IMG/VR virus record: IMGVR_UViG_2545824719_000022
Coordinates: 1-35,359 of that record
Origin: a virus
Taxonomy: Duplodnaviria > Heunggongvirae > Uroviricota > Caudoviricetes
Strand: one strand, 5' to 3'
Length of the DNA: 35,359 nt
The notes below the pieces were generated by a model, which was not told where the DNA came from, did not search any database, and saw only the letters and a list, made by a program, of their open reading frames with translations. Both the position numbers and the translations under genes were made by a program. Shown piece after piece: positions 7,047 to 32,071 of the stretch (its first letter is position 1; the number at the start of each line of letters is the position of its first letter).

Positions 7047-8237
7047 TTAATTGCTGTTAACCGAAGTGACCAGATTTGCCAGGTATTTATCGGTAATACG
7101 CTGGCGCAGGGTCAGGTTTTCAAGAGGAGGCACCGGTGTATAGTCGTAGTCGATATACAGTTTTCCGGCCTTGAGGGTTTCCGCATCGTTGGATTCTTCG
7201 CTGAACCAGCAGGTCGCATCCACGATATAGCCGTTTGTTTTCAGCTCACGGAATTTGGCATTGATGCCGTCAACGATGTCGCGAATCAGCGTTGCGGTGA
7301 TGGGCTTGTCCACCGCCCACATGTGCGCCTCAGCCATCGTGTCGGCCAGCACCTGCGCGGTGCGGGTATAGTTTTCAAAGAGGAACAGCGGGTCATCAGA
7401 GCAGGTACGGTTACCCCAGAAGCGGAAACCGTCGCGGCGAATCAGCGTAGTGACGCCTGACTCGTTAAGCAGGTCAGCATCGGTGCCGAACTCCTGCAAA
7501 TCCCAGAATACAGATGCGCTGATGCCGGTAACACCATTTACCCCGACGTTGGACAACGTTTTATGCCAGCCCTGCTCCTGGTCGATTTTAGCACGCAGCC
7601 CCAGCGCACGGGCGGTGGCATACGCGGTGGCGGTGGTGCTGCTGACCGTATCCCATGCGAGGAAATCCGGCCAGATGACCATCAGCTCACGCTGGCTGAA
7701 ATTCTGGCGGTAGGCTTTCACCTCGGAAATGGTTTTACAGCCCCATGCGCTGATATACCCGAAAGCGCGCAGCTTCTGACAGACTGATGCCAGTGCAACA
7801 GCCACCTCTTTGGTGTCCAGTCCCGGCACGCCGAGAATACGCGGTTTAACACCGGTTACTGACTCCGCCGCCAGCAGGGCTTTCAGTCCGGTGTACTGAC
7901 CGTTTTCGTCGGTGGTGCCGATGATATTGGAAACGGTCTGCGCAAGTTTCGTTTCTTCGTCGTCGCCGGTGCCGTCTTCCACGCGCACGACAACGGTGAC
8001 CGGTTTTGACTGGTCAGCGATGGCCTGCAACGATGCCGCCAGCGTGCCTTTTTTACCGGCCTTTGCAATTGCGCTCTGCACATTGGTAATCAGCACAGGT
8101 TTATTGAGGGGGAAGGTTTCCGCATCCGCATCGCTGGCCGTGCAGACCATGCCGACAATGGCAGTGGATACAGTGGAAATGACGCGGGTGCCGTCGTTAA
8201 TCTCCAGCACCTGCACGCCGTGATGATAGTCACTCAT
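7047..8237 (-). CDS. FI: Contractile tail sheath protein gpFI
   Basis: 396-aa ORF with ATG start; P2 FI-like; first gene of the FI-FII-E-T-U-D block. Confidence 0.9.
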   Translation of the reverse strand: MSDYHHGVQVLEINDGTRVISTVSTAIVGMVCTASDADAETFPLNKPVLITNVQSAIAKAGKKGTLAASLQAIADQSKPVTVVVRVEDGTGDDEETKLAQTVSNIIGTTDENGQYTGLKALLAAESVTGVKPRILGVPGLDTKEVAVALASVCQKLRAFGYISAWGCKTISEVKAYRQNFSQRELMVIWPDFLAWDTVSSTTATAYATARALGLRAKIDQEQGWHKTLSNVGVNGVTGISASVFWDLQEFGTDADLLNESGVTTLIRRDGFRFWGNRTCSDDPLFLFENYTRTAQVLADTMAEAHMWAVDKPITATLIRDIVDGINAKFRELKTNGYIVDATCWFSEESNDAETLKAGKLYIDYDYTPVPPLENLTLRQRITDKYLANLVTSVNSN

Positions 8238-8723
8238 CCGTTTAACTCCGTGGTTAATGGGTGCAACTATTTTCTGTTGGGCAGTGCATGAGACGCTATT
8301 TGACCTGGCTGGTCAGTGGATGAAACAACAGATAAAGAAAATGCGGGCAATTCCCCCCGCCAGTCCTGATTTGCACTCACTCATTCTCCAACTGGCTACT
8401 TACATAGCCCAAACGCTATCAAATCTGACAGTCTGCTTTGAGCGATCTGCGGACATTACTAACAGCATTCTGTATGAATAACGGGGGGTAGATCATTCCT
8501 GTCCTCACGACGACGCCTATCTATCATACAGTCGTTCTTTGGATCAAGACGCGTTCTGAAATGGTGTTTTTATGTATGTGCTGAATTCTGGGGCATAGAG
8601 TAAACCTTTCAAATTGCCAGAAACAGAAATGTGCGATTTAGTTGTCAAGTAATACCGGATAATTCAGCGATTCATCAAGAAATCATCGACCAGGCTGCTG
8701 TACATTCTCATCGGACGATTTTA

Positions 8724-9590
8724 CTATTCCTCAAGATCGCAGTTACTGCAATGACCTTCCATCCGGAATGCACCACATTCACAAGGCTCCATAGGAACAA
8801 AACCATCCATCTTGCTGTATTCACATTTATACCAGAGACAGACACCGACCCTTTGTTCCGGTAAATAAATTACGGATGGGACACTACATTCAGGACATTC
8901 CTGAAAATCCCAAGTTTGCAGATTATTCAGGCTGAAACCACAACAGATACAGTGAGTCCGTGCCGGAAAGCTTTCACTTTGGTAAAGGATAAAATGTGAA
9001 AAACTCTCACAAACGGGACAAAGTGCAAGGGTGTATTCCTGGTTAACAGTTATATCAAGGAATTGTTGCTCAAGAGCGATGATGTCTTGACGTAAATCAG
9101 AGTTCCATGAATTTTCGGTCTCATCTGACTGAATTATGACGAATGCGGGACGAAAAATTTGTTGGTACAGTTCACTCAGTTGCATTGCCAGTTCTTGCGG
9201 ACGAACCTCAAGGGCAAAATGCTGAAGGTTATTACGCAACTGACCCACCGTTTTCATCATTTGTAATGCAGATTCAGAAAATTCGGCTGGGTAATATGTC
9301 TTTAACAGCTTACAAAGCTGGTTGACGTTGACAGATTTACACTGGTGTAATTCTGACTCGGTTGGATGCGCCGGATCCACACATTTTTCTTGAAGCGATG
9401 CTGGATTAAAAATCGCTCCAGACCCATTGCGCGAAACTACGGCCTTCAACAATAGCTCAGCGGCCTGAAAGAGGTTAAGCAGGCACTGTTTGTAGTCACG
9501 TCGATCATGCCCTTCTAGCGCTTTGTTAAAGTAGTCCAGCCCGGTTTCCACTGAATCCAACGCATTTTCTAGTAAGTTAAAACGGACCAT
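8724..9590 (-). CDS. Cargo protein: HEPN-like N-terminal domain (Rx4H motif RNNLQH) plus C-terminal cysteine-rich multi-zinc-ribbon region; candidate defence/abortive-infection effector
   Basis: 288-aa ORF with ATG start in an AT-rich insert. N-terminal 130 aa are helical-looking, with R119-x4-H124. C-terminal 100 aa carry CPVC, HCICC, CPEC, CLWYKC, CEC and CSNC motifs. No P2 backbone counterpart. Confidence 0.55.
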   Translation of the reverse strand: MVRFNLLENALDSVETGLDYFNKALEGHDRRDYKQCLLNLFQAAELLLKAVVSRNGSGAIFNPASLQEKCVDPAHPTESELHQCKSVNVNQLCKLLKTYYPAEFSESALQMMKTVGQLRNNLQHFALEVRPQELAMQLSELYQQIFRPAFVIIQSDETENSWNSDLRQDIIALEQQFLDITVNQEYTLALCPVCESFSHFILYQSESFPARTHCICCGFSLNNLQTWDFQECPECSVPSVIYLPEQRVGVCLWYKCEYSKMDGFVPMEPCECGAFRMEGHCSNCDLEE

Positions 9591-9753
9591 ATTAAAGCCC
9601 CCCGAATAGGCATCGTCGTTATGCCAGCGCTTCCGCCAGTTACACAGATAGTGATTGTACCCACGAATATTGGGAACCTATTTTAGCATGTTTAACTTTA
9701 GTAGTACTGACACAACATTCATGGAGCGGACTGATTGACTTTTGGGGCGTGTA

Positions 9754-9782
9754 TTTACAAACTCACTACAATGCTGTATAAT
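9754..9782 (+). promoter_or_regulatory. Near-consensus sigma70 promoter TTTACA-N17-TATAAT reading + (opposite to flanking genes)
   Basis: TTTACA at 9754-9759, a 17-bp spacer, then perfect TATAAT at 9777-9782; lies about 140 bp upstream of the small ORF at 9921. Confidence 0.5.
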
Positions 9783-9920
9783 TCGTGAAGAGTGAATTTA
9801 GCTAGTGCATCCATAGGTTCGATTCCTATGCCTACAATTCTCATCACAGCTCTCCCAATAGTCGCATTTATCCGTTACCTCAACGTGTTACTTAACGATT
9901 ACGTCAGTAAGGAGAAGCCT

Positions 9921-10097
9921 ATGAGTAAATTATTCCGCCATGTAGTACTACTATATGTATCTTGTTTCATTGAAACTTTTTGGGCTGGGGTGATAAGTGT
10001 AGTAGCGGGTCTGATGACGGGCGGTGTCCAAATTATTTTGGCACTAGCTAAATCTTCTCAATTTTTGTTTTTTTATTCAAAGCACTTACCCCCATAA
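9921..10097 (+). CDS. Small hydrophobic protein (58 aa), probable membrane peptide
   Basis: ATG preceded by a strong SD AAGGAG with 6-nt spacing. Product MSKLFRHVVLLYVSCFIETFWAGVISVVAGLMTGGVQIILALAKSSQFLFFYSKHLPP is largely hydrophobic (1-2 predicted TM helices). The track's longer 101-aa version starts at GTG 9792, right at the predicted transcription start. Confidence 0.45.
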   Translation: MSKLFRHVVLLYVSCFIETFWAGVISVVAGLMTGGVQIILALAKSSQFLFFYSKHLPP

Positions 10098-10374
10098 ATA
10101 TTATTTAAATCAATAAACTAAGTCACTCTACGCATATTTTCCTTATCATGGTCTTTCGTGTTTTTTGTACTCAACATGATCGTTTCTCCTTTCTTTAATA
10201 CACAGTATGATTAGCTACGCCTTCTGTTGGAGCGAAGTGGACGAGTTAATTGAGCTGAATGTCAGCTATGAGCGAGGAACGGACTTCAAGAAAGTACCTA
10301 ACTGCGTATCGATTGCAAAATATGACAGTCTAACGGTGTTAAGGGCCATGAGTGCAGCCCTTAAGAAAAAAGTA

Positions 10375-11310
10375 TTAATAATATTTCCTGGCTTGCGCGC
10401 TCGTTTCGGTTAAGTTTATTTCATGGTAGTGATTATTTATAAAGTCACAAAAAGTACTAATTTTATCTTTGAGATTACTCATGCTATGCGTGATTTCGTC
10501 GTATAAATCGCTTTCCTCCTGATTTCGACAGTGGTCACCGGGATTTATAAAACTAAAAGTATCATTTGGTGCTGAATAATTATATGGAGCTTTTCTAAAC
10601 AAGATAATTAGATCACGCCAGGCCGTTGCAAAATCAATTGTAACATTCTTTAAAGCTGTATCATTCAGTTGAAAAACAGGTGAGTTTAAAATGTTCAAAA
10701 TATTATCGTATTCTTCAATAATTAATGAATGAATGTATTTTGCGCCCCACTGCAAATGTTCTATTGTTGAATGAAAATCAATAACATTCAACAATGTCGA
10801 CAAATTTGAGATATCTCTCTTGCGCAAAAATTCTTCCCTCGTCGGTTGGTGTCGTTCGAACATTTGCGGGTAGTACATTTTGAGTACAGCTGGGTCTTTG
10901 CTTAAATCAAAGCTAATATCCTCCCAGAAAACCACATCGACAGGAAACAGGCCTTTTAATTGTCTGGCATCATTGAGTGTTCTTACATAGCGCTGAATGC
11001 TAACATCCCTGGGCGCTGTCGTAGCGATGTAAAGAACCGTAATTTTTGGGCGAAATTTTTCAGCCTTGAGTAATTCATCATCGATTGTCGCCGTACTGAT
11101 TCCTGATACTGTATTTTTACACTGAATTCCAACGAAACGCCCAAGAGAGTAATCACCATATACATCAACTCCATCCTGCCGCTGCCCTGACCGTCCATGT
11201 CTGTTCAGATTAGGATTGGACCATCGCAGTTGGAATGAACTTTTGCACATATCCTCAAATTCGTCCCAAGATTTAGGGGGGGGTAACAACATTGAATTAT
11301 ATGTAACCAC
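10375..11310 (-). CDS. Cargo protein: Mrr-like PD-(D/E)xK restriction-endonuclease-fold N-terminal domain plus uncharacterised C-terminal domain; candidate defence nuclease
   Basis: 311-aa ORF with GTG start 7 nt after SD AAGGA (alternative ATG at 11292). N-terminus shows W..FE..C....F, then DGVDVYG, then GIQCK, then hydrophobic beta-strand-like segments (ITVLYIATT, VDVVFWEDIS): the typical Mrr catalytic-domain layout. AT-rich. Confidence 0.6.
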   Translation of the reverse strand: MVTYNSMLLPPPKSWDEFEDMCKSSFQLRWSNPNLNRHGRSGQRQDGVDVYGDYSLGRFVGIQCKNTVSGISTATIDDELLKAEKFRPKITVLYIATTAPRDVSIQRYVRTLNDARQLKGLFPVDVVFWEDISFDLSKDPAVLKMYYPQMFERHQPTREEFLRKRDISNLSTLLNVIDFHSTIEHLQWGAKYIHSLIIEEYDNILNILNSPVFQLNDTALKNVTIDFATAWRDLIILFRKAPYNYSAPNDTFSFINPGDHCRNQEESDLYDEITHSMSNLKDKISTFCDFINNHYHEINLTETSAQARKYY

Positions 11311-11785
11311 TTACTAATCCTTTATCTAAGATTCTTCATTTTTGTAATCACTATCATAATCATGCTTGATGTGCAATATCTTATTTGCCATGGTTATATG
11401 ACGTGAACATAATATATGCTGTAAGTATAAGCAGAATTTATTAATGGTGTTCGCCACTCAACGTAATGGTTTCACACTCTAAGGCTCTTTTTTAATAAAT
11501 CAAAACATTATGGACAGTGAATCATATCGGAAATGGTTCCTTTTAAATTGAATAACGGCCATAGTACACAGGTGTATGTGTTAATCGATTTTTCAGACGT
11601 TTTTTTCGCCTAACATGAGATTTCGTTCGATTAAGCACCAGACCCAATTACCACTATTTAATGAGTACAATTGCTTTACTTTAGGTCGAGTAGTAGTAAC
11701 GTCCGCTCTTGGCACAGAGCGGACTGTCAGATTAGGCTTTACTCTGTGCCATAGATATGTAATCTCACACCAGAGCTTATACAAC

Positions 11786-12313
11786 TTATTGCGGCATTTC
11801 CGGCCATTCAGGATTTGCAGGATCCACACGGCTGACCAGAACACTGTAGCGTTCCCATGCTTCCAGTCGGCTACGCTCCTCATCTGTTGCCATGTTCAGC
11901 CTGACAGCGCGCTCCAGTGGCAAAATCACGGATTCAGCATCTGCAAGAAGTCTGGCTTTCCGGTTTTCTGCCTGCTGCTGCAATTCCTCTGCCGTATAAA
12001 TGCGTTTAATCACTTTGCCGTCCTTAAACATCCAGTTCCCTGAAATGTCCGCCCGTCGGTTAGCAGTAATATCCGCCACTTCAACCACACTTAATCCATC
12101 TGGTCTGATAGCTGTCACATCCTTTTCCACATAGCGGATAATATTATCTTTGTCGTACGCTATTTTTATCGTGTCATCAGCAAAATACTTTTGTTCTTCG
12201 TACCAGTTCTTACCATCTTCTGAAAAAAACCAGACAACATCAAAGTCCTTTGTCAATTGATATTGTTCAACCGTTTTTGGATTACCCACCGTTATATTTA
12301 TCAAATGCTGCAT
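11786..12313 (-). CDS. G: Tail fibre assembly protein gpG
   Basis: 175-aa ORF with ATG start directly downstream of H; P2 G/Tfa-like sequence. Confidence 0.85.
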
Positions 12314-12316
12314 AAA

Positions 12317-14899
12317 TTATACCTGCGCCACGTTATACCATGTCCCGTTAATGTATTTCTGCACCGGTCTGTAATATATGCCACCAATGTTATCGGCAGA
12401 GTTTGAGCCGGTATCCTGAACAATAATGCCGGAATATACACACCCGGACGGTGCCTGATGTGTCCATGTCATGCCATTGTTCGCAGGTTTGTATGTGGCA
12501 GCACCACCAAGCCGGATATCCCGGACATAGCGTGAATCAAAGTTGCCATAGTTAGATGGTGATACCTGCCCGTTAACAGCAAAAGTGATGCTGTTATCTG
12601 TATTTCTCTGACTGTAAAAATGCCAGCCTGCATCATCACCTAATTCAGCCACCACCGGACGACTTGAGTTTCCCCACAAATTGAATGCGGCTTCCTTCGT
12701 GGATGTATTACTGCTGCTGACCGTGAATTTTTTCCCGCTACCGGCACGTACTTTGGTACTTGAGACAATATCACCAGTAACATTCAGGCCATGCCCCATT
12801 GATACAGCACCCGTGGCATCATTTATAATCAGCGGTCTTAAATTATTATAACTGCCTAATCTGTCACCTGATTTAGTCAACATAAAATAAGTGCTGCTGC
12901 CATCATTCCTGATAAAGAAACCATAATTGCCATAAGCAATGCGCAGACCATTAGCACTGAGTGATGTAATCTCACCTCTTGAACGGAGACCATAAGCGGA
13001 GCTGAGTGATAATTCTTCCTGAGCATCAGTATTACCAGTCGCCCAGCGAACTACCCCGCCCTGTACTGTTTCATGCCAGATAGTGTCTCCTTCTCCACCA
13101 CGAAACTTTCTGAGATATTTTTTGCCGCCTCTGGTGCCTGAACATAAGGCCGTAGACATATAGGCATTCTGGCTTCCGCCATCCTGATTAATCGTTCCGG
13201 TCATTGCGTCGCCCTGACGATTCCAGTCACGACGCCAGCCGGGGGAGTAGCCGTCCCCATGATTTATGTAAGTGAATTGCGCGCTGGTTGTACCGCCACC
13301 ACTTGATGTTGTCGGCGTGGTCACTCGAATAGTGATTGCAGATTTAGTTCCCATGACCTCGACGACACAACCAGCCAGGTGGATATCACCACATCCGGTA
13401 TCCGTAATGATTTTGTTATTTGCATATGACCAGGAGCCTTTGCACATCCAGTACGGATGATTAAATGCACCACGGGAATCCAGCCATTCAATAAACTGAG
13501 CGGTTGTCCAGTTTCCGGCTTCAGTGCTCAAAGCGCCGCTATAAGCACGACAGGCACCGATATTTTTCGTGAAGGTATCCTTTCCCGGAATATCCGCACC
13601 GTTCTGATCTTTCTGAAGACGTTTTTCAGCATTGTCATAGGCAGACTTCACCGCTTTTGATGTTGCAGCCAGCGTTTCAGAATCGCTGTTGGTGGCGCTA
13701 CTGAGCTGGACAAGACCTTTCCGCGCCGTGGTGGCGTCCTGTGCAGTGTATTTCCCGTTAGCAAGGTCATACGCTGTCTTAACCGCCTTTGGCGTTGCCG
13801 CAAGCGTTTCAGAATCGCTGTTGGTGGCGCTACTGAGCTGGACAAGACCTTTTCGCGCTGTGGTGGCATCCTGTGCAGTGTATTTCCCGTTAGCAAGGTC
13901 ATACGCTGTCTTAACCGCCTTTGGCGTTGCCGCAAGCGTTTCAGAATCGCTGTTGGTGGCGCTACTGAGCTGGACAAGACCTTTTCGCGCTGTGGTGGCA
14001 TCCTGTGCAGTGTATTTCCCGTTAGCAAGGTCATACGCTGTCTTAACCGCCTTTGGCGTTGCCGCAAGCGTTTCAGAATCGCTGTTGGTGACGCTACTGA
14101 GCTGGACAAGACCTTTTCGCGCGGTGGTGGCATCCTGTGCGGTATATTTCCCGTTAGCAAGGTCATATGCTGCCTTTACCGCTTTTGGTGTTGCGGCGAG
14201 CGTTTCAGACGTGCTGTTGGTGGCACTACTGAGCTGGACAAGGCCTTTTCGCGCTATGGTGGCGTCCTGTGCGGTATATTTCCCGTTAGCAAGGTCATAC
14301 GCGGCCTTTACCGCTTTCGGCGTTGCGGCCAGTGTTTCAGACGTGCTGTTGGTCGCACTGCTTAACTGAGTAAAACCTTTTGCGGTCAGCGAGGCGTCAG
14401 GGTGACGTCGTGACTGTTCATGTTCTGCAATTTTGTCATCAACGTAATCCTGCGTTGCCATCACCGTTGTGGTGTCAATGGTCAGCTCCACTGAGGCCAC
14501 ACTGCTGACGATGATGACCATGCGGCAGGTCTGCGAACGCCCTGAGCCTTCGGCAAGGGCTGGCTTATAACTTTCGGCCATGTTCGCCACGGCAATTAGC
14601 GTTCCCGCATCATCGTACAGGCCAAGTTCACGCATCCAGAAACCGCCCACCTCCGGCGGAATAACCAGCTCTGCGATAATATAATTACTGTTTCGTTTGT
14701 CCTGGCTGATTTTGTTCAGCGCATGTCGCCAGACTTCGTGGATAAGCCCGGTCTGTCCGGCATCCGGGACAGGCAATTTACCCCCGCCATCCCCGACGGC
14801 CATCGTGGTAATATTGACCTTCCGCCCTCCCGGTGCGGTTGCCGCTGCCAGCTTTGCTGCACCGGCAGTGGTGATAACGGTTCTGAATTTTGTGCTCAT
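12317..14899 (-). CDS. H: Tail fibre protein gpH (receptor-binding), with internal tandem repeats
   Basis: 860-aa ORF with ATG start; conserved P2 H-like N-terminus (MSTKFRTVITTAGAAKLAAATAPGG...), about 5.5 copies of a 44-aa repeat, and a distal receptor-binding-type region. Confidence 0.9.
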   Translation of the reverse strand: MSTKFRTVITTAGAAKLAAATAPGGRKVNITTMAVGDGGGKLPVPDAGQTGLIHEVWRHALNKISQDKRNSNYIIAELVIPPEVGGFWMRELGLYDDAGTLIAVANMAESYKPALAEGSGRSQTCRMVIIVSSVASVELTIDTTTVMATQDYVDDKIAEHEQSRRHPDASLTAKGFTQLSSATNSTSETLAATPKAVKAAYDLANGKYTAQDATIARKGLVQLSSATNSTSETLAATPKAVKAAYDLANGKYTAQDATTARKGLVQLSSVTNSDSETLAATPKAVKTAYDLANGKYTAQDATTARKGLVQLSSATNSDSETLAATPKAVKTAYDLANGKYTAQDATTARKGLVQLSSATNSDSETLAATPKAVKTAYDLANGKYTAQDATTARKGLVQLSSATNSDSETLAATSKAVKSAYDNAEKRLQKDQNGADIPGKDTFTKNIGACRAYSGALSTEAGNWTTAQFIEWLDSRGAFNHPYWMCKGSWSYANNKIITDTGCGDIHLAGCVVEVMGTKSAITIRVTTPTTSSGGGTTSAQFTYINHGDGYSPGWRRDWNRQGDAMTGTINQDGGSQNAYMSTALCSGTRGGKKYLRKFRGGEGDTIWHETVQGGVVRWATGNTDAQEELSLSSAYGLRSRGEITSLSANGLRIAYGNYGFFIRNDGSSTYFMLTKSGDRLGSYNNLRPLIINDATGAVSMGHGLNVTGDIVSSTKVRAGSGKKFTVSSSNTSTKEAAFNLWGNSSRPVVAELGDDAGWHFYSQRNTDNSITFAVNGQVSPSNYGNFDSRYVRDIRLGGAATYKPANNGMTWTHQAPSGCVYSGIIVQDTGSNSADNIGGIYYRPVQKYINGTWYNVAQV
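13620..14390. repeat. About 5.5 near-identical tandem copies of a 132-bp unit inside H (phage tail fibre repeat)
   Basis: Period measured directly: the GCGTTTCAG motif recurs at 13672, 13804 and 13936 (132 bp apart). Protein unit is GLVQLSSATNS(D/T)SETLAATPKAVK(A/T)AYDLANGKYTAQDATTARK. Boundaries approximate. Confidence 0.85.
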
Positions 14900-23765: not shown

Positions 23766-25538
23766 ATGACCATCACCACAGACACCACTCTTTTACACGA
23801 CCCGCGTCGTCAGGCGGCGCTGCTGTACTGGCAGGGATTTTCCGTGCCGCAGATTGCCGCCATGTTGCAGATGAAGCGCCCGACGGTGCAGAGCTGGAAA
23901 CAGCGCGACGGCTGGGACAGCGTTGCTCCCATCAGCCGTGTCGAAATGAGTCTGGAAGCGCGGCTGACCCAGCTCATCATCAAACCGCAGAAAACCGGCG
24001 GTGACTTCAAGGAAATTGACCTGCTCGGACGCCAGATTGAACGACTGGCGCGGGTCAACCGTTACAGCCAGACCGGCAACGAGGCAGACCTTAATCCGAA
24101 CGTTGCTAACCGCAACAAAGGCGGGCGTCGCAAACCGAAAAAGAATTTTTTCAGTGACGAGGCCATCGAAAAGCTGGAGCAGATTTTCTTTGAGCAGTCT
24201 TTCGACTATCAGTTGCACTGGTATCGCGCCGGGCTTGAGCACCGCATCCGCGATATCCTGAAATCCCGCCAGATTGGCGCGACGTTTTATTTTTCCCGCG
24301 AGGCGCTGCTGCGCGCCCTGAAAACCGGTCATAACCAGATTTTTCTGTCGGCCAGTAAAACGCAGGCGTATGTGTTCCGTGAATACATCATCGCCTTTGC
24401 CCGGCTGGTTGACGTTGACCTGACCGGTGACCCGATTGTCCTGGGCAATAACGGCGCAAAACTGATTTTTCTCGGCACCAACTCCAACACCGCACAGAGC
24501 CATAACGGCGACCTGTACGTCGACGAGATTTTCTGGATCCCGAATTTTCAGGTACTGCGTAAGGTGGCATCAGGTATGGCCTCACAGAGTCACCTGCGCT
24601 CGACCTATTTCTCCACCCCGTCCACGCTGGCGCACGACGCCTACCCGTTCTGGTCGGGTGAACTGTTCAACCGGGGACGCGCCAGCGCCGCCGAACGTGT
24701 GGAAATCGACGTCAGTCATAACGCCCTTGCCGGTGGTCTTCTCTGTGCGGACGGCCAGTGGCGGCAGATTGTCACCATTGAGGACGCCCTGAAAGGTGGC
24801 TGCACGCTGTTCGACATTGAGCAGCTCAAACGCGAAAACAGCGCCGACGATTTTAAAAACCTGTTCATGTGTGAATTTGTTGACGACAAGGCGTCAGTGT
24901 TCCCGTTCGAGGAGCTGCAACGCTGCATGGTCGACACGCTGGAAGAATGGGAAGACTATGCGCCGTTTGCCGCCAATCCGTTCGGCTCACGTCCGGTATG
25001 GATTGGTTACGACCCGTCACACCGTGGCGACAGCGCCGGATGCGTGGTGCTGGCACCGCCGGTGGTGGCCGGTGGCAAATTCAGAATACTTGAGCGTCAC
25101 CAGTGGAAAGGCATGGATTTTGCCACTCAGGCGGAATCCATCCGCAAACTCACCGAAAAATACAACGTCGAATACATCGGTATTGATGCCACCGGCCTCG
25201 GTGTCGGCGTGTTCCAGCTCGTGCGCTCGTTCTATCCCGCCGCGCGCGATATCCGCTACACGCCGGAAATGAAAACCGCAATGGTGCTCAAGGCAAAAGA
25301 CGTTATTCGCCGTGGCTGTCTGGAATATGACGTCAGCGCCACCGACATCACCAGCTCGTTCATGGCTATCCGCAAGACCATGACCAGCAGCGGACGCAGC
25401 GCCACCTATGAGGCCAGCCGCAGCGAGGAAGCCAGCCACGCCGACCTCGCATGGGCGACCATGCACGCTCTGTTAAATGAGCCACTCACCGCCGGTATCA
25501 GCACCCCGCTGACATCCACCATTCTGGAGTTTTACTGA
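23766..25538 (+). CDS. P: Terminase ATPase (large) subunit gpP
   Basis: 590-aa product from ATG at 23766 (SD GAGGT upstream): MTITTDTTLLHDPRRQAALLYWQGFS...; P2 P-like. Stop overlaps the Q start (TGATG). Confidence 0.9.
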   Translation: MTITTDTTLLHDPRRQAALLYWQGFSVPQIAAMLQMKRPTVQSWKQRDGWDSVAPISRVEMSLEARLTQLIIKPQKTGGDFKEIDLLGRQIERLARVNRYSQTGNEADLNPNVANRNKGGRRKPKKNFFSDEAIEKLEQIFFEQSFDYQLHWYRAGLEHRIRDILKSRQIGATFYFSREALLRALKTGHNQIFLSASKTQAYVFREYIIAFARLVDVDLTGDPIVLGNNGAKLIFLGTNSNTAQSHNGDLYVDEIFWIPNFQVLRKVASGMASQSHLRSTYFSTPSTLAHDAYPFWSGELFNRGRASAAERVEIDVSHNALAGGLLCADGQWRQIVTIEDALKGGCTLFDIEQLKRENSADDFKNLFMCEFVDDKASVFPFEELQRCMVDTLEEWEDYAPFAANPFGSRPVWIGYDPSHRGDSAGCVVLAPPVVAGGKFRILERHQWKGMDFATQAESIRKLTEKYNVEYIGIDATGLGVGVFQLVRSFYPAARDIRYTPEMKTAMVLKAKDVIRRGCLEYDVSATDITSSFMAIRKTMTSSGRSATYEASRSEEASHADLAWATMHALLNEPLTAGISTPLTSTILEFY

Positions 25539-26572
25539 TGAGCAAGAAAAAAGGGAAAACACCGCAACCTGCGGCAAAAAAAATGACCGCCAGCGCCCCG
25601 AAAATGGAGACATTCACCTTTGGTGAGCCGGTGCCGGTACTCGACCGCCGTGACATTCTGGATTACGTCGAGTGCATCAGTAACGGCAGATGGTATGAGC
25701 CACCGGTCAGCTTTACCGGTCTGGCAAAAAGCCTGCGTGCTGCCGTGCATCACAGCTCACCGATTTACGTTAAACGCAATATTCTGGCCTCGACATTTAT
25801 CCCGCATCCGTGGCTTTCACAGCAGAATTTCAGCCGCTTTGTGCTGGACTTTCTGGTGTTCGGTAATGCGTTTCTGGAAAAGCGATACAGCACCACCGGT
25901 AAGGTCATCAGACTGGAAACCTCACCGGCAAAATATACCCGCCGTGGCGTGGAAGAGGATGTTTACTGGTGGGTGCCGTCCTTCAACGAGCCGACACCTT
26001 TCGCGCCCGGCTCCGTGTTTCACCTGCTGGAGCCGGATATTAATCAGGAGCTGTACGGTCTGCCGGAATATCTCAGCGCCCTTAACTCTGCCTGGCTGAA
26101 TGAGTCGGCCACGCTGTTCCGCCGCAAGTATTACGAAAACGGCGCACATGCCGGATACATCATGTACGTCACCGATGCCGTGCAGGACCGCAACGATATC
26201 GAAATGCTTCGCGAAAACATGGTCAAGTCGAAAGGCCGCAACAACTTTAAAAACCTGTTTCTCTATGCCCCACAGGGGAAAGCCGACGGCATTAAAATTA
26301 TCCCCCTCAGTGAAGTGGCGACGAAGGACGATTTTTTTAATATCAAAAAAGCCAGCGCCGCTGACCTGCTGGACGCGCACCGCATCCCCTTTCAGTTGAT
26401 GGGTGGCAAGCCGGAGAACGTCGGGTCGCTGGGTGATATTGAGAAAGTGGCAAAGGTCTTTGTCCGCAATGAACTTATCCCGTTACAGGACAGGATCCGC
26501 GAGATAAACGGCTGGCTCGGTCAGGAGGTCATCCGCTTTAAAAACTACTCACTGGACCCTGACAACGGCTGA
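25538..26572 (+). CDS. Q: Portal protein gpQ
   Basis: 344-aa ORF with ATG start; P2 Q-like; last gene before cos. Confidence 0.9.
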   Translation: MSKKKGKTPQPAAKKMTASAPKMETFTFGEPVPVLDRRDILDYVECISNGRWYEPPVSFTGLAKSLRAAVHHSSPIYVKRNILASTFIPHPWLSQQNFSRFVLDFLVFGNAFLEKRYSTTGKVIRLETSPAKYTRRGVEEDVYWWVPSFNEPTPFAPGSVFHLLEPDINQELYGLPEYLSALNSAWLNESATLFRRKYYENGAHAGYIMYVTDAVQDRNDIEMLRENMVKSKGRNNFKNLFLYAPQGKADGIKIIPLSEVATKDDFFNIKKASAADLLDAHRIPFQLMGGKPENVGSLGDIEKVAKVFVRNELIPLQDRIREINGWLGQEVIRFKNYSLDPDNG

Positions 26573-26599: not shown

Positions 26600-26741
26600 A
26601 CACCCTGTCATCACGCCCTCACACGCTCACCACCGCACAAAACATCCCGCAGACACACCAACGCCCCGGCGAACAATCTAAACGCCATCACGACGCGCTC
26701 AGACGCTGAAAAAATAAAATCAGCACCACCGCCAGCGCGCA

Positions 26742-26760
26742 GTGCTTTCCCCGCCTCGCC
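26742..26760. other. cos site (19-nt cohesive end)
   Basis: GTGCTTTCCCCGCCTCGCC is the reverse complement of GGCGAGGCGGGGAAAGCAC, which I recall as the P2 cohesive-end sequence; it lies between Q and the right-end accessory region, as expected. Confidence 0.75.
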
Positions 26761-27075
26761 CGCCCGCTTCATGGGGCGGTTTTAATGCAGTTGCATGATG
26801 AAACTGAAATCACATCAGCACTGACCGAAACTGACAAAAAGAATAGTATCTGACACATGCAAAAACACGCACTTAATATACGCCTATCTATAGCTCCTAC
26901 AGGATTGTCAAAAAACGACCAACTCGTCATAGCGTAAACACATTTGGCTCAACGAACACTTACGTTATATGCCTCTTGCACATATCAAAGTCTTAAGGTA
27001 GATCTTTACCACTAAGTGGCTATATTAAGCTGCTTTTTTACATACAATAAAAGCTTTATCGTATGAGGCATAAAA

Positions 27076-29292
27076 ATGGAACTTAGATTAAAAAATGTTA
27101 CCAGTTATAAGAAAGACGCCTTCACAATACTGAATCTTGAAAAAAGAGTAAACATACTATACGGCCAAAATGGTTGTGGCAAATCTACCATTTCAAATTA
27201 TTTCTACGACTCTACACACACAGATTATAACGAGTGTGAATGTACCCTTCTTGACAATTACAAACCTCTTGTTTACAACACTAAATTTATTGAAGATAAT
27301 TTCTACAATGCACAGGAACAAAAAGGTGTTTTTACATTAAGTAAAGAAAATGCAGATATTGAAAAACAATTAATTAAAAAAGAAGCAATTAAACAGCAAC
27401 TTACAGAGCAATATAGACAAAAAAAAGGAGTGTTATTGAAATTAGAAGCAGAAATGGAAAAAAAAGAAAATGAATACATCGAATCGATCTGGAAAAAAAC
27501 AGAACCAATCAGAAACTCTGTACTAAAAATCTTAATGAAAGGTAAAGTTGGCTATAAAAGACCTTTTTTTGAGATGATAAAATCATCCTCACCAATCACC
27601 TTTATTAATTTAAATGATATAGCAAAAGAATACTCTATACTATTAGAAAATAGAAACAATGAAACCGCATTAATAACTCCTTTACACCCATATACCCCAT
27701 CAATTGATGATGTAAATACATTAGCAACACCTATAATAGATACAAGCAATAGCTATTTATCAGAAACCATTAATAAACTTCATAATCTTGACTGGGTAAA
27801 AAAAGGTAAAGAACATTATTTAGACGGTTCTACATGTCCGTTTTGTCAGGAAAAAACTATTAGTCGCGAATTTTTAAATGCCCTTAAATCAATATTTGAC
27901 GAAAGTTATTCAAAGAAAGTAAAACAGCTCTCAGATATAAAGTCAGTTTATGAGAAAAATACCATATATCATTTTAACGAAATACAAAACAATATATCAT
28001 CATGTGCACTAATCAATGAGAAAGATAAAGAGATCATTATTTCCAATATTAAAATATTGCAAAACATTGCAGAAAAAAATTTAATAAACATTATTGATAA
28101 GATCAACAATCCATCAACATGCGTTACATTAGAAATTGATAAAGAACTAGAAAATCATGTTCAGGAAAGCATAGACGCTGTTAACAAAAAAATAAGAGAC
28201 ATAAATGATAAGGTTAAAAAACTCAAAGAGTATGAGAATAAAATCGGAAAACAAGTTTGGGGGGCTCTCCATGCTTTTTGCAGCGATGATTTAGAGAATT
28301 TATCCAAACACAAAGAAAAATTCTTTGATATCAAAAAGAAAGTTCATGATGAATTAAATAATATTGAGCAACAAGGAAAAGAAAATAATCTCACAATAAA
28401 AGCATTGCGAGATAAAATATCTAACATTGATTCTACGATAGACTCAATAAACACCCATTTAAAAAATCTAGGGATCTCTGGTTTTTGTATTGAAAAACAT
28501 GCAGAAAGAAAAGATATGTACATTATATCTCGACCAGGGCATACAAAAAACCAAAATGTTTATAGATCTCTTAGCGAAGGTGAAAAAACACTAATAACGT
28601 TTCTTTATTTTTTAGAGTGCTGTAAAGGTAAAACCGATAAAAATGATACCGATAGCAGGGATATTTTTATTGTTATTGACGATCCAATATCTAGTCTATC
28701 GCAAAACTATGTCTACGACATCGCATCAATTATTCATCACCACATTATAAAAAATGAATTAACAAAGAAGGTATTAATCCTTACTCACAATCTTTATTTC
28801 TTTCATGAACTTATTAAGCTATCTCCTAAAAGCAGAGAAGACAAACTATTTAAGAAAAACTATTATCTAGGTAGAGTAACGAAAAATGATTTTAGTATAA
28901 TTACTGAAATACAAAAAAACAGCATACAGAATGAATATCAATCTTTGTGGCAAATATTAAAAGATGCAAAAGATGGCAAAGCAAACAAAATCATAATACC
29001 TAATATTATGAGAAACATACTAGAATATTATTTTGCATTTGTTCATAGAACAGATGCTCTACAAGATGAATTAACAAAGTTGGCACGCGACGATAGCAAC
29101 AGTGATTTCAAAGCATTCTACAGATACATTAACAGAGGTTCTCACTCTGATGCGGTAAATATTACTGATATGGGCGACATAGACCCAGATAAATACCTAA
29201 AACAATTGAGAACAATATTTTCAGCTACTGGTGACGAAATGCATTATTTAAAAATGATGGACGAACTAGAAGAGGAGAACGTTACCGCTTAG
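27076..29292 (+). CDS. Cargo protein: RloC/PrrC-family anticodon nuclease-like ABC/Rad50-type ATPase (738 aa)
   Basis: Motifs read from the translation: Walker A GQNGCGKST near the N-terminus; long Lys/Glu-rich coiled-coil with central CPFC zinc-hook-like motif; ABC signature-like LSEGEK; Walker B IFIVIDDP; H-loop LILTHN; C-terminal R-x3-E (RNILEYY) and N-x2-S-H (NRGSHSD) resembling the PrrC/RloC anticodon-nuclease catalytic motifs. Very AT-rich; ATG preceded by GAGG. Confidence 0.65.
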   Translation: MELRLKNVTSYKKDAFTILNLEKRVNILYGQNGCGKSTISNYFYDSTHTDYNECECTLLDNYKPLVYNTKFIEDNFYNAQEQKGVFTLSKENADIEKQLIKKEAIKQQLTEQYRQKKGVLLKLEAEMEKKENEYIESIWKKTEPIRNSVLKILMKGKVGYKRPFFEMIKSSSPITFINLNDIAKEYSILLENRNNETALITPLHPYTPSIDDVNTLATPIIDTSNSYLSETINKLHNLDWVKKGKEHYLDGSTCPFCQEKTISREFLNALKSIFDESYSKKVKQLSDIKSVYEKNTIYHFNEIQNNISSCALINEKDKEIIISNIKILQNIAEKNLINIIDKINNPSTCVTLEIDKELENHVQESIDAVNKKIRDINDKVKKLKEYENKIGKQVWGALHAFCSDDLENLSKHKEKFFDIKKKVHDELNNIEQQGKENNLTIKALRDKISNIDSTIDSINTHLKNLGISGFCIEKHAERKDMYIISRPGHTKNQNVYRSLSEGEKTLITFLYFLECCKGKTDKNDTDSRDIFIVIDDPISSLSQNYVYDIASIIHHHIIKNELTKKVLILTHNLYFFHELIKLSPKSREDKLFKKNYYLGRVTKNDFSIITEIQKNSIQNEYQSLWQILKDAKDGKANKIIIPNIMRNILEYYFAFVHRTDALQDELTKLARDDSNSDFKAFYRYINRGSHSDAVNITDMGDIDPDKYLKQLRTIFSATGDEMHYLKMMDELEEENVTA

Positions 29293-29541
29293 GCCGCATA
29301 TTATCGTTTTGGGTAAGAACGACGGTGCTTACGCACCGTCTCCCAACGCCCAAAGCGGTAGCGGTTGTACTGGCGTACATTCACTAGCTTTAACATGAGG
29401 CAATCTCCATGCCAGCACTATTGTTGCCAATAGCAGCCTTTATACCCTTTGTACAAAGCTAATACCAAGAGTAATGCAAAGTAGATGTCCCAAGCGGTAA
29501 CGGGGCTATTCTATGTCAAACACAGAAATAATCAAAGCGCC

Positions 29542-31806
29542 CTATGAATCCCCCCAACCATCAGCGACCGGATACGTGAATTTTTTCCCGTCATAATTTA
29601 CGGTCGCTCTACGCGCCAGCGCCTCAAGCTCCCATCGCTGCGGCCTGATACCGTTCTGAGCAAGGTCAACGCGGATACGGGTGATTTGCAATCGTTCAGA
29701 CCTGGTCAGTCTGGCAGATGGTGCAATTTCATGCGGTTTTAACGGGCTTCCGTTTCTTTGCTGACGGTTTGGCGTTCTCAGGTCGTATTTTAATGCGCCC
29801 CTGAGCGCCCTCACGACCTCCGGTTCATTCCATTCAATAACACCGTCATCAACCAGATTAAGCACTGCTGCGGCGTGCTCAGAAGGTGTGGGAGCCGGTA
29901 ACGAAGTATCACCACCGGTGAGCTTTCCACAGTTATTGACAGGACTCCGAGGCGCGGCGATGCCGCTTTTTAAAGTCAAGGGCTCAACGACCGGAACTTT
30001 CGGCACAATGCGCCAGTCCGTCGTTCTGGTGATATGAATATGACGCGCGCCGAGATGCGGCGCGTAAATGCCGACCACTCTCTCGACTTCTTCCTCGTAC
30101 TCGTTAACGTCATCCGACGGGCTACGGGCGACCCTGACAGTCTGACAATCGCGCGGGACATTTGCCCCGCCCTGCGCGCTGATATACAACGCAAAATCAC
30201 CACTGTCTGCAGCGGCGCGTGCAGCCTCGACGCGCTCGTCAAACTCATCAGCAATGCTGACGCCGCGAGGCAATTTGCGTAGTTCACGGTAAGCCCCCAT
30301 TGTCGGCAGACCAACCGTTTTAAATTGCGGAATGCGCCACGTTGACGCCCATGCGGTAACAGCCGCTGCAGTGTCTTTCAGCGGCCTGCCGGTATCGTTA
30401 TTGAGCTGACCATCCAGTGCATAGCCGTCGATATTTTTTGAGATGTATTTTGCGATATATCCCGCAGCACCGCCCCGGTTAAGGTGTTTTGCCTGAAAAC
30501 GGTTTCGCGCGGCTCCTCTTTCGTCACCATCCTCTTTGAGCGCATAGCGACGCATGATTTCGATAATCTGGTTACGCTGGCGTGGATTACAAAAAAGCAT
30601 CATATGCCAGTGCGGCGTTCCGTCGTGGTGTGGCTCGACGACACGCAAACCGTAGACCTGTAAATCATTATCCTTGAATGCCGTGCGCATCAGGCTCCAG
30701 ATGCGGCAGAGATAACGCTGCGCATCCTTTGGATTAAATGCCTCATCGTTCCAGCCGTGATTAAGCTGAACGGTTTTACTTTCGCCTTTTCTGACCTGAC
30801 GAGTCGGGTGATACTTTGACGGCGCGGTAAGCGTGATAAACATCCCCACATCACCCTCTGCGGCGGCGTAACGCTCAATACCGGCAATGGTGTTCATCAG
30901 CTCCATCCGGCGAATTTCAGGATTAGAAATACTGCCCATCACCTTACTGATAAGGTCGATGCGCTCGCCGGTTTCCCTGTTTTCAAGGTCACACGATTTA
31001 AGAAATTCCAGATTTGCCTGGCGGCGTGCACGCACATCACGAATGGCATGTTTACTGGCATAAGGAGAGCGGTCTTTATTGACCTCCCCGACAGCAATCA
31101 GTAACGCCTCATGCCAGCGCATACGCTGGCCTTTAAGCTGATGAGTCCACCACTCATCGTTAAACAGACGGGCAATGGCAGAATATGCCTGCCTCGTGGT
31201 CATCTGTCCTTTACGGTATTTTTTCCAGTAGAGCGGGGAAATATTGAAAGCTCGTGCAGCGCCAGCAACATGACCATAGAGGTGAGCCTGCGCCTCATCC
31301 GTAAACAGCGATTCTTTTTCGCCATGTGCATCAACCCAGGCATCGCAGAGTTCCTCATACATCATGAAAAGCTGCGATGAGATACGGGCAGCAAACTTTT
31401 TCAGCTCCTTGTCATTCATCCCCGGCAGGCGCGCATACTGGTCGCGCTCTGCCAGAAACAGCAACGACGCGTCGGTGTTCATTTCATGGCGCTGATTCAC
31501 ACGCTCAATGCGCGGCCATAAACGACGCTGAAAAGTGGATGTGAGGAAATAAAACCCGTGCACCGGGCTTTTATTGCGCCGGATGTAGTCATAGCGTGAA
31601 GTAAACAGCGAGCGCAAAAAGTAAGGCAGGCGGTTAATCGTGGATAAAACACCTTGCACCTGACGCATCTCGTCACGTGTAAGGGGTCTTTCGCGCCCGA
31701 GGGCCTCGCGTGGCGCGTTCCATGCATAAGCACCGGTAAACATCTTACCGGTGCCTGCGGCAAATGCTGACGGAGGGACAAAACGCCCGGAGGCTTTAAC
31801 GGCCAT
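29542..31806 (-). CDS. A: Replication initiation protein gpA (rolling-circle nickase)
   Basis: P2 A-like sequence, including the HUH-type HWHMMLF motif and paired tyrosines (YIAKYISK). Start placed at ATG 31806 (MAVKASGRF...); the track ORF begins at an upstream TTG (31848). Confidence 0.85.
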   Translation of the reverse strand: MAVKASGRFVPPSAFAAGTGKMFTGAYAWNAPREALGRERPLTRDEMRQVQGVLSTINRLPYFLRSLFTSRYDYIRRNKSPVHGFYFLTSTFQRRLWPRIERVNQRHEMNTDASLLFLAERDQYARLPGMNDKELKKFAARISSQLFMMYEELCDAWVDAHGEKESLFTDEAQAHLYGHVAGAARAFNISPLYWKKYRKGQMTTRQAYSAIARLFNDEWWTHQLKGQRMRWHEALLIAVGEVNKDRSPYASKHAIRDVRARRQANLEFLKSCDLENRETGERIDLISKVMGSISNPEIRRMELMNTIAGIERYAAAEGDVGMFITLTAPSKYHPTRQVRKGESKTVQLNHGWNDEAFNPKDAQRYLCRIWSLMRTAFKDNDLQVYGLRVVEPHHDGTPHWHMMLFCNPRQRNQIIEIMRRYALKEDGDERGAARNRFQAKHLNRGGAAGYIAKYISKNIDGYALDGQLNNDTGRPLKDTAAAVTAWASTWRIPQFKTVGLPTMGAYRELRKLPRGVSIADEFDERVEAARAAADSGDFALYISAQGGANVPRDCQTVRVARSPSDDVNEYEEEVERVVGIYAPHLGARHIHITRTTDWRIVPKVPVVEPLTLKSGIAAPRSPVNNCGKLTGGDTSLPAPTPSEHAAAVLNLVDDGVIEWNEPEVVRALRGALKYDLRTPNRQQRNGSPLKPHEIAPSARLTRSERLQITRIRVDLAQNGIRPQRWELEALARRATVNYDGKKFTYPVADGWGDS

Positions 31807-32071
31807 ATGAGCCAAAAGCCTCTGAACAACGCCTGCTGAGTTGCTCAACCTGCGCGTTTAAATCAGCAAAAGACTTTGCGCTTCCGGTCAGAATATCGTG
31901 ATGCATCAGGCCGGAAACGAGCTGGCTTAATTTCGGATAATAACCAACCACCGCCAGCCATTCCTGACCGGCGTTTTTACCGCTTTCCGCTCTCTTTTTC
32001 TCGTGGAGAATAAACTGAAAGCTGTCACTGGTAACGACATAACGTTCGCCAATTTCAATACGAATACTCAT
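31796..32071 (-). CDS. Early-operon hypothetical protein (91 aa)
   Basis: ATG start overlapping the upstream stop (ATGA); lies between the TraR-like gene and A. Confidence 0.55.
   Translation of the reverse strand: MSIRIEIGERYVVTSDSFQFILHEKKRAESGKNAGQEWLAVVGYYPKLSQLVSGLMHHDILTGSAKSFADLNAQVEQLSRRCSEAFGSYGR

Follow-up and report, generated by a model that had tools for sequence, protein, structure and literature searches.

Two loci of P2-like phages are known to gather defence genes. Rousset et al. covered the gpA-Q hotspot only (PMC9122126); the fun locus is a second defence-enriched P2 locus, holding three of the systems of Vassallo et al. (PMC9519451), and was rediscovered in a 2024 hotspot-annotation preprint (bioRxiv 10.1101/2024.10.15.618418). 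Among described single-gene systems, HEC-08 (Hma-embedded candidate 08; Payne et al.) combines a HEPN domain with zinc fingers and lowers plaquing in E. coli, and mutation of the histidine in its Rx4-6H motif abolishes defence (bioRxiv 10.1101/2024.01.29.577857). We here analyze an AT-rich cargo island in the Z/fun slot of a P2-like phage of the Caudoviricetes, carried on IMG/VR record IMGVR_UViG_2545824719_000022, positions 1 to 35,359; this entire stretch of 35,359 nucleotides (nt) is referred to below as the window.

Flanked by gene FI (tail sheath) and gene G (tail fibre assembly), the island holds three open reading frames (ORFs): gene A (288 aa) and gene B (311 aa), both on the minus strand, and a small plus-strand gene of 101 codons. 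A first-pass annotation of the window had listed these same ORFs and had taken them for one, possibly undescribed, defence module in a type of slot that it described as a known hotspot for anti-phage systems. The two reports on the fun locus bear out this view of the slot, whereas the single module does not survive our analysis, as the three genes proved separable across genomes. We find instead ordinary cargo of a known hotspot, a novel multi-gene system being unsupported. Current concepts are thereby left unchanged, with members and one candidate added to a known class. More generally, adjacency in a prophage hotspot does not amount to a system, and cassette boundaries and cross-genome separability matter before a system is named.

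Two cassettes, probably stacked in the Z/fun slot

We consider the island likely to be accessory cargo of the P2 Z/fun hotspot composed of two independently mobile cassettes, stacked between inverted repeats, and not to be a single multi-gene system. The single-module reading fails because gene A, gene B and the small gene each occur apart from the others, and because the cassette ends recur elsewhere.

Cassette 1 (8432-10286, about 1.85 kb) contains gene A and the small gene. The same block, with left ends at 8418, 8432 or 8440 and right ends at 10283-10286, was found at 95-99% identity in E. coli (locus L002), Serratia marcescens (L111) and Phytobacter (L112), that is, in three unrelated contexts. 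Cassette 2 (10287-11731, about 1.45 kb) contains gene B and a conserved 410-nt region upstream of it, and the corresponding block (10256 or 10287 to 11720 or 11731) is 87% identical in S. marcescens (L096) and S. silvae (L003). The 410-nt upstream region is 90% conserved and takes in most of the right inverted repeat.

The stacked cassettes are bordered by the inverted repeats of the Z region. The left repeat (8422-8461) is a 40-nt arm that is 80% complementary to the right repeat (11694-11733); it begins with the core motif AATCTGACAGTC (8422-8433), which the right repeat carries on the minus strand at 11722-11733. This core motif also falls within the annotated repeats at both ends of the GenBank "Z-region" records of P2-EC30 and P2-EC58. 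A further copy, AATATGACAGTC, is located on the plus strand at the cassette junction (10319-10330), where a 14-nt repeat (10318-10331) spans it. Throughout the 35-kb window the 12-nt pattern AATNTGACAGTC has exactly three sites, at 8422 (+), 10319 (+) and 11722 (−), all of them at cassette boundaries, compared to an expected count of 0.54 even when one mismatch is allowed. The motif flanks the Z regions of P2-EC30 and P2-EC58 as well.

A chromosomal slot between LysR- and LacI-family genes of S. marcescens holds the same cassettes: cassette 2 with gene B in one strain (L096, 5580-7064), and cassette 1 with a 259-aa gene and a YaaC-like gene in another (L111, 3515-7642). This slot looks like a Serratia diversity hotspot that shares cargo with the Z/fun slot of P2. 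The simplest reading would be that recombination at the shared boundary sequence stacked two alternative cargos, and the repeated motif hints at how Z/fun cargo is exchanged.

Six E. coli records, namely five plasmids (~160-207 kb) and one chromosome, contain the last ~100 bp of cassette 1 (10174-10275) by itself, with 95% identity. We set this fragment aside as uninformative, since in the one plasmid examined it lies in an unannotated stretch among insertion sequence fragments.

Separability of the three genes

No relative of gene A was present at any of 80 loci carrying a relative of gene B, within the ~8 kb fetched on each side. The B relatives were instead found in diverse settings. In S. 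marcescens they stand alone between LacI- and LysR-family genes, in S. ureilytica they adjoin Kiwa (KwaA/KwaB), and in Vibrio they border an integrative element, at its edge. In Pantoea their neighbors are Ogr_Delta and DndB-family genes, and on a Leclercia plasmid, which encodes phage capsid and tail proteins as well, the neighbor is RepB.

Gene A, in turn, occurs without B beside an integrase, IS3 and a reverse transcriptase in E. coli (L002), and in a Serratia island it lies close to Cas1 and to an ATPase gene of the AAA_15 family. It is also found without B in the gpA-Q hotspot of another P2-like phage (L087), where its neighbors are an AAA_15 ATPase gene and a 377-aa gene without a Pfam match. 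Across 5,426 complete E. coli genomes cassette 1 was present in 28, in 15 of them without B. The remaining 13, which carry B, form two variant groups, with ~99.9% and 97.5-98.7% identity to the window, a pattern consistent with one or two inherited prophage lineages.

The small gene is likewise not bound to its neighbors. It accompanies gene A only within a clade of A that is at least 97% identical (E. coli, Serratia L111 and Phytobacter L112), and it was found without A in Buttiauxella and beside a prophage tail-spike gene.

Gene A, a probable distant relative of HEC-08

Gene A (8724-9590, minus strand) encodes a 288-aa protein with an N-terminal HEPN domain (residues ~1-180) followed by three zinc-ribbon-like units (~186-285). 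In Pfam it showed sub-threshold matches to HEPN and DUF3644 only. The PADLOC model PDC-S64 matched residues 1-139, namely the HEPN half only (E = 4.3e-21), and the HEC-08 profile, which has no curated cut-off, matched weakly but over nearly the entire protein (E = 4.2e-6, 24 bits; residues 14-285 on model positions 20-300 of 358). The PDC-S64 match recurred in all 24 members of the A family and the HEC-08 match in 23.

An alignment of 24 homologues revealed that R119, N120, Q123 and H124, which form the RNxxQH version of the Rx4H motif, are invariant. So are 12 cysteines arranged as six pairs (191/194, 214/217, 232/235, 251/256, 270/272 and 281/284), and the AlphaFold2 (AF2) model places beta-hairpin units at residues 186-277. 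The N-terminal part adopts the DUF3644/HEPN fold, with HEPN toxins among its best structural matches. The nuclease-type hallmarks originally pointed out in this protein, R119/H124 and the zinc ribbons, are thus found both in the fold and among the invariant residues. Because of the HEPN fold, the invariant motifs and the PDC-S64 and HEC-08 matches, we place gene A as a probable distant member, or variant, of the described and validated HEC-08 kind.

Relatives of gene A were identified on 266 plasmids, 253 of which are conjugative. These plasmid-borne relatives (~66% identical) are mostly the second gene of a tight operon, separated by a 1-nt gap from a first gene of 333-362 aa with a ribbon-helix-helix (RHH)-like N-terminus and a sub-threshold DUF6364 match (L119/L106, 3911-5870; L120 and L121, 2911-4870; L105, 3915-5870). 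A 64-aa version of the RHH-type protein precedes gene A in another P2-like phage (L087, 7804-8864). On E. coli IncF and Salmonella plasmids the operon adjoins a nucleotidyltransferase gene and an S-4TM effector gene, a pair that we read as CBASS-type. The A relative and the RHH-type protein on conjugative plasmids may constitute an unnamed two-gene system.

A remnant of the RHH partner was looked for upstream of gene A in the window and none was found. Among the ORFs of the window there is also no MNT antitoxin gene beside A, and the neighbors of A relatives are RHH-domain proteins or unrelated genes. Gene A of the window, a P2-borne HEC-08 relative lacking the RHH-domain partner common among its plasmid relatives, either works alone like HEC-08 or is regulated differently.

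Gene B, a candidate Mrr-like nuclease

Gene B (10375-11310, minus strand) encodes a 311-aa protein with an N-terminal Mrr-like PD-(D/E)xK nuclease domain (residues ~1-150) and a C-terminal helical domain (~158-311). The protein had no Pfam, NCBIfam or PADLOC match at the thresholds used. When 32 relatives were searched, nine showed Mrr_cat matches below the Pfam gathering threshold (best E = 0.0067), and weak matches to PADLOC candidate models appeared in three (PDC-M58A in two, PDC-S02 in one). The description of the cargo as possibly undescribed accordingly comes closer to holding for B, to which no PADLOC model was assigned, than for A, with its PDC-S64 and HEC-08 matches. The PHROGs search confirmed only phage families of unknown function.

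The alignment of these 32 sequences revealed invariant E19, D49 (within G-V-D), Q63-C64-K65 and E79, in line with the DGVD and QCK motifs singled out in the first-pass annotation. The AF2 model (pLDDT score 89.7) matches several nucleases and contains the alpha-beta-beta-beta-alpha-beta core. In the model the third core strand carries Q63-x-K65, and D49 comes just ahead of strand two, as the geometry of a PD-(D/E)xK site would require. Replacement of the glutamate by glutamine is the Mrr/MspJI variant of this motif. A PDB sequence-profile search retrieved a single match, which we dismissed as chance.

Residues 158-311 form a helical bundle that matches only generic (four-)helix bundles, and neither Pfam nor the PDB profile search gave any domain match in this region, a modification reader (winged helix or SRA-like) included. 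An exhaustive profile search retrieved 4,713 clusters (50% identity) for the N-terminal domain at E ≤ 1e-3. Only ~20 of the 150 best-scoring clusters align to B over its full length, the rest consisting of the N-terminal nuclease followed by unrelated C-terminal regions. Sampled relatives with this nuclease domain include a 1,523-aa NACHT-associated protein (Pfam NCAB2) and an 807-aa TIR/bSEFIR protein, and plasmid-borne relatives are annotated as TPR proteins. Since it is fused to NACHT-associated, TIR and TPR domains elsewhere, the N-terminal domain of B appears from these sequence comparisons to behave as an immune-effector module. Gene B is a variant undescribed as defence but built on a known effector fold, and its predicted nuclease, the effector domain of which is found again in immune proteins of NLR and TIR type, makes it a worthwhile defence candidate.

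A small gene with its own predicted promoter

The small gene (9792-10097, plus strand) reads as a 101-aa form from GTG 9792, whereas RefSeq annotates only the last 58 codons (WP_231360267), from ATG 9921, which lies six bases 3' of an invariant AAGGAG. In a DNA alignment of five loci, conservation begins precisely at GTG 9792. Over 9829-9920, substitutions fall on codon positions 1/2/3 in the proportions 9/4/14, 8/5/14 and 6/3/15; a 6-nt indel is in frame, stop codons are absent, and replacements are conservative and hydrophobic. Because of the conservation from 9792, the third-position bias, the in-frame indel and the lack of stops, the 101-aa form is probably real, the upstream 43 codons probably being coding as well and the 58-aa call probably a mis-annotation. 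GTG 9792 may be the start codon, though it lies only ~9 nt past the −10 hexamer.

Homologues of the small gene were found in Serratia, Phytobacter, Dickeya, Hafnia and Buttiauxella; across them conservation covers residues 1-44 of the 58-aa form and gives way to a variable tail. Hydrophobic stretches at residues ~14-34 and ~51-86 of the 101-aa protein suggest that it is probably inserted in the membrane, with two or three helices predicted. Pfam, PADLOC, NCBIfam and PHROGs yielded no usable family match.

The gene is preceded by a sigma-70-type promoter (9754-9782, plus strand; TTTACA-17-TATAAT) that agrees with the consensus at 11 of 12 positions. Its −35 and −10 hexamers are kept in position in five orthologous loci, in surroundings that are only ~49% identical; the early description had likewise given this gene a strong promoter of its own. 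Taken as a class, promoter-like sites show no enrichment within the island (7 observed, 10.1 ± 3.2 expected).

Another such site (10061-10032, minus strand; TTGAGA-18-AATAAT, 10/12) lies within the 3' end of the small gene, and the RNA made from it would be antisense, running towards gene A. This site is the sole antisense candidate if the gene is viewed as part of a type I toxin-antitoxin pair; the protein is hydrophobic and, at 101 aa, longer than typical type I toxins.

Near the start of the gene (~9816-9826, plus strand), GGTTCGATTCC is a canonical tRNA T-loop sequence, invariant in the five loci. We rejected a tRNA or att remnant here: ARAGORN found no tRNA in the window or in the five related loci, the putative flanking stem is not kept in Buttiauxella or in L115, and the changes fit coding. 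The resemblance is probably a coincidence.

Borders of the island and other features of the window

The interval first proposed as cargo (8238-11785) has a GC content of 0.403, compared to 0.561 in the left flank and 0.572 in the right (40% against 56-57%), which agrees with the AT-richness initially reported. Along the profile, GC is 0.36-0.44 over 8500-11500 and 0.54-0.60 on either side. The core of this interval stands as cargo. Its ends do not: given the positions of the inverted repeats (8422-8461 and 11694-11733), the true cargo is narrower, at ~8434-11721, and the wider span takes in conserved P2 backbone. Indeed, among sequenced phages, P2, Wphi, HQ103 and their relatives match the island only over a few hundred bases at each end, the cargo in between differing in each phage. 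A 74-aa ORF (8257-8481, plus strand) that overlaps the left inverted repeat matches phrog_11095, of function unknown in PHROGs, at 3.2e-45. Because it sits in the conserved left end, which has 90-93% DNA identity to other P2-like phages, we read it, on sequence grounds, as backbone outside the cargo.

On the left, gene FI (7047-8237, minus strand) belongs to the conserved P2 backbone and matches Pfam Phage_sheath_1 (8.8e-34) as well as sheath_1C and Gp18_domIII_N; on the right, gene G (11786-12313, minus strand) matches Caudo_TAP (6.8e-35). A RefSeq prophage in E. coli strain 120899, 99.9% identical to the island, has the same flanks labelled "phage tail sheath protein" and "tail fiber assembly protein". 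The island, placed in the P2 Z/fun slot by the first-pass annotation as well, thus shows the position between FI and G, the Z-region inverted repeats at its borders and the content variable among P2-like phages that characterize this hotspot. Rfam gave no credible RNA over 8000-12000, and no known antisense RNA family; a literature search by the RefSeq protein accessions of the island genes returned no match.

A second cargo island (~26600-29500, GC ~0.29-0.34) occupies the other P2 hotspot, between the portal gene Q (25538-26572) and the replication gene A (29542-31848). It encodes a single 738-aa AAA_13 ATPase (27076-29292, plus strand; Pfam 6.7e-111, PADLOC PDC-S06 4.8e-254) with a PrrC-like C-terminal match (1e-12). 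Next to gene G, the tail fibre gene H (12317-14899, minus strand) contains ~6 tandem units, each of roughly 44 aa and containing AQDATTARKGLVQLSSATNSDSETLAATPKAVKTAYDLANGKYT. It encodes 860 aa here and 772 aa (a 2,319-nt coding sequence) in the RefSeq prophage that is 99.9% identical over the island, a length difference that may be caused by differing repeat number.

Functional interpretation and alternative explanations

The catalytic activities, triggers and anti-phage phenotypes that we infer for A and B would run as follows. Gene A would encode an infection-triggered HEPN RNase whose zinc-ribbon region binds nucleic acid or senses a phage cue, upon which the Rx4H site would cut RNA and halt phage growth. 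Gene B may be a solitary Mrr/MspJI-type endonuclease (D49, Q63-x-K65), a metal-dependent DNase acting against invading DNA; its helical C-terminal domain could be a regulator or sensor that restrains or targets the DNase, making B a sensor and DNase in one chain. More tentatively still, the small protein might be an independent inner-membrane factor of the lysogenic-conversion or exclusion type, expressed in the lysogen.

Several observations weigh against two independent cassettes with a HEC-08 relative among their genes. Within E. coli, gene B (cassette 2) adjoins cassette 1 in every one of the 13 genomes that carry it. The co-occurrence that might be expected of a module is therefore real within this species, but it does not extend to the 80 B loci without A or to the many places where A occurs without B. 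The HEC-08 match of A is weak (24 bits, E = 4e-6), and the stronger PDC-S64 match is limited to the HEPN half. Moreover, the A family may normally need a partner, and the copy in the window may be differently regulated or inactive. Finally, the small gene varies like intergenic DNA among near-identical copies, one of which has a frameshifted tail; selection on its C-terminus is therefore weak, and the gene shows no clear sign of purifying selection among close variants.

A more ambitious account of the island joins three proposals that, taken together, we hold to be possible but rather doubtful. Gene B would be the first member recognized in a prophage from a large family, as yet unnamed, of minimal immune nucleases, in which a Mrr-like effector at the N-terminus is joined to an exchangeable sensor at the C-terminus; the small protein would be a new self-mobile exclusion or abortive-infection factor; and the slot would be a cassette array built by recombination at a defined site, marked by the three AATNTGACAGTC copies.

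Gene A and the small membrane protein are unlikely to work as a pair independent of B, either as a HEPN sensor-RNase with a membrane effector or as a toxin and a regulator linked through divergent overlapping transcription. Such pairing would account for the identical geometry of the 1.85-kb block (divergent genes with a ~330-nt gap) in E. coli, Serratia and Phytobacter, and the promoter-like site at 10061-10032 would supply an antisense RNA towards A. However, the small gene occurs without A in Buttiauxella and beside a phage tail-spike gene, whereas every examined A relative below ~77% identity lacks the small gene and has an RHH-domain partner or other neighbors instead. The association is confined to a single A clade (≥97% identical), for which hitch-hiking suffices.

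Less probable again is that the cargo has no part in anti-phage defence, consisting of addiction or selfish modules that stabilize the prophage (a toxic nuclease or a type I-like membrane toxin) or of decayed, functionless passengers. The lack beside A of the partner common in its family and the intergenic-like variability of the small gene among close copies would suit this idea, but no cognate MNT or RHH antitoxin gene adjoins, Rfam revealed no known antisense RNA, the catalytic residues do not vary, and identity of A across genera is at least 97%. In addition, the genes lie in defence-hotspot neighborhoods (Kiwa, CBASS, AAA_15 ATPase genes and the two P2 hotspots).

Cooperation of all three genes in a single defence system, with, for instance, an RNase, a DNase and a membrane effector acting jointly, is very improbable. 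Their adjacency holds throughout the 13 E. coli genomes and in five of the six B-bearing IMG/VR viral contigs that the A query recovered, but two closely related variant groups of one prophage account for this co-occurrence. B relatives at 80 loci lack A, 15 E. coli genomes, 266 plasmids and other genera have A without B, the small gene is found alone, and discrete cassette ends recur elsewhere with a copy of the boundary motif between the cassettes.

Comparison with known systems

Two stacked cassettes of independently mobile cargo thus remain the preferred reading, and their contents can be set against described systems. Gene A and HEC-08 share an N-terminal DUF3644-type HEPN domain, a conserved Rx4-6H motif and, towards the C-terminus, a number of zinc-finger or zinc-ribbon-like units, and the HEPN domain of both matches the SO_3166 toxin structure 5yep. 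In the window A is standalone, having no conserved partner, as is HEC-08, and the HEC-08 model aligned to it weakly, over nearly its full length. The two differ in that their sequence relation is distant and A is shorter (288 aa, against 358 model positions). They also differ in setting: A lies in a P2 prophage slot and HEC-08 is embedded in an Hma system. Many A relatives are paired with an RHH-domain protein, a pairing not described for HEC-08, and anti-phage activity, demonstrated for the HEC-08 representative, is putative for A. With the toxins of HEPN-MNT (HepT/MntA) systems gene A shares the HEPN fold and the Rx4H motif, but it has a large zinc-ribbon extension that is absent from HepT toxins, and no MNT nucleotidyltransferase adjoins it.

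Gene B differs from Mrr/MspJI-type enzymes (type IV restriction) in that its nuclease is N-terminal and followed by a helical bundle, with no winged-helix or SRA-type reader detected. Compared to the Mrr-like effector domains of Avs4 and LlaBIII, it lacks the ATPase or TPR sensor seen in Avs, although other members of the B family carry NACHT-associated, TIR or TPR domains.

None of the PD-T4, PD-Lambda or PD-T7 models, which are expected in the PADLOC 2.0.0 library, was among the hits of that library to the window proteins. In its organization the island resembles the cargo of the P2 Z/fun slot between FI and G: the slot and the inverted repeats are the same, and the contents are likewise short, AT-rich, promoter-bearing moron cassettes expressed from the prophage. 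It differs from such cargo as the PD systems of Vassallo et al. (2022) in its genes, and in that two cassettes are here stacked with a boundary motif between them.

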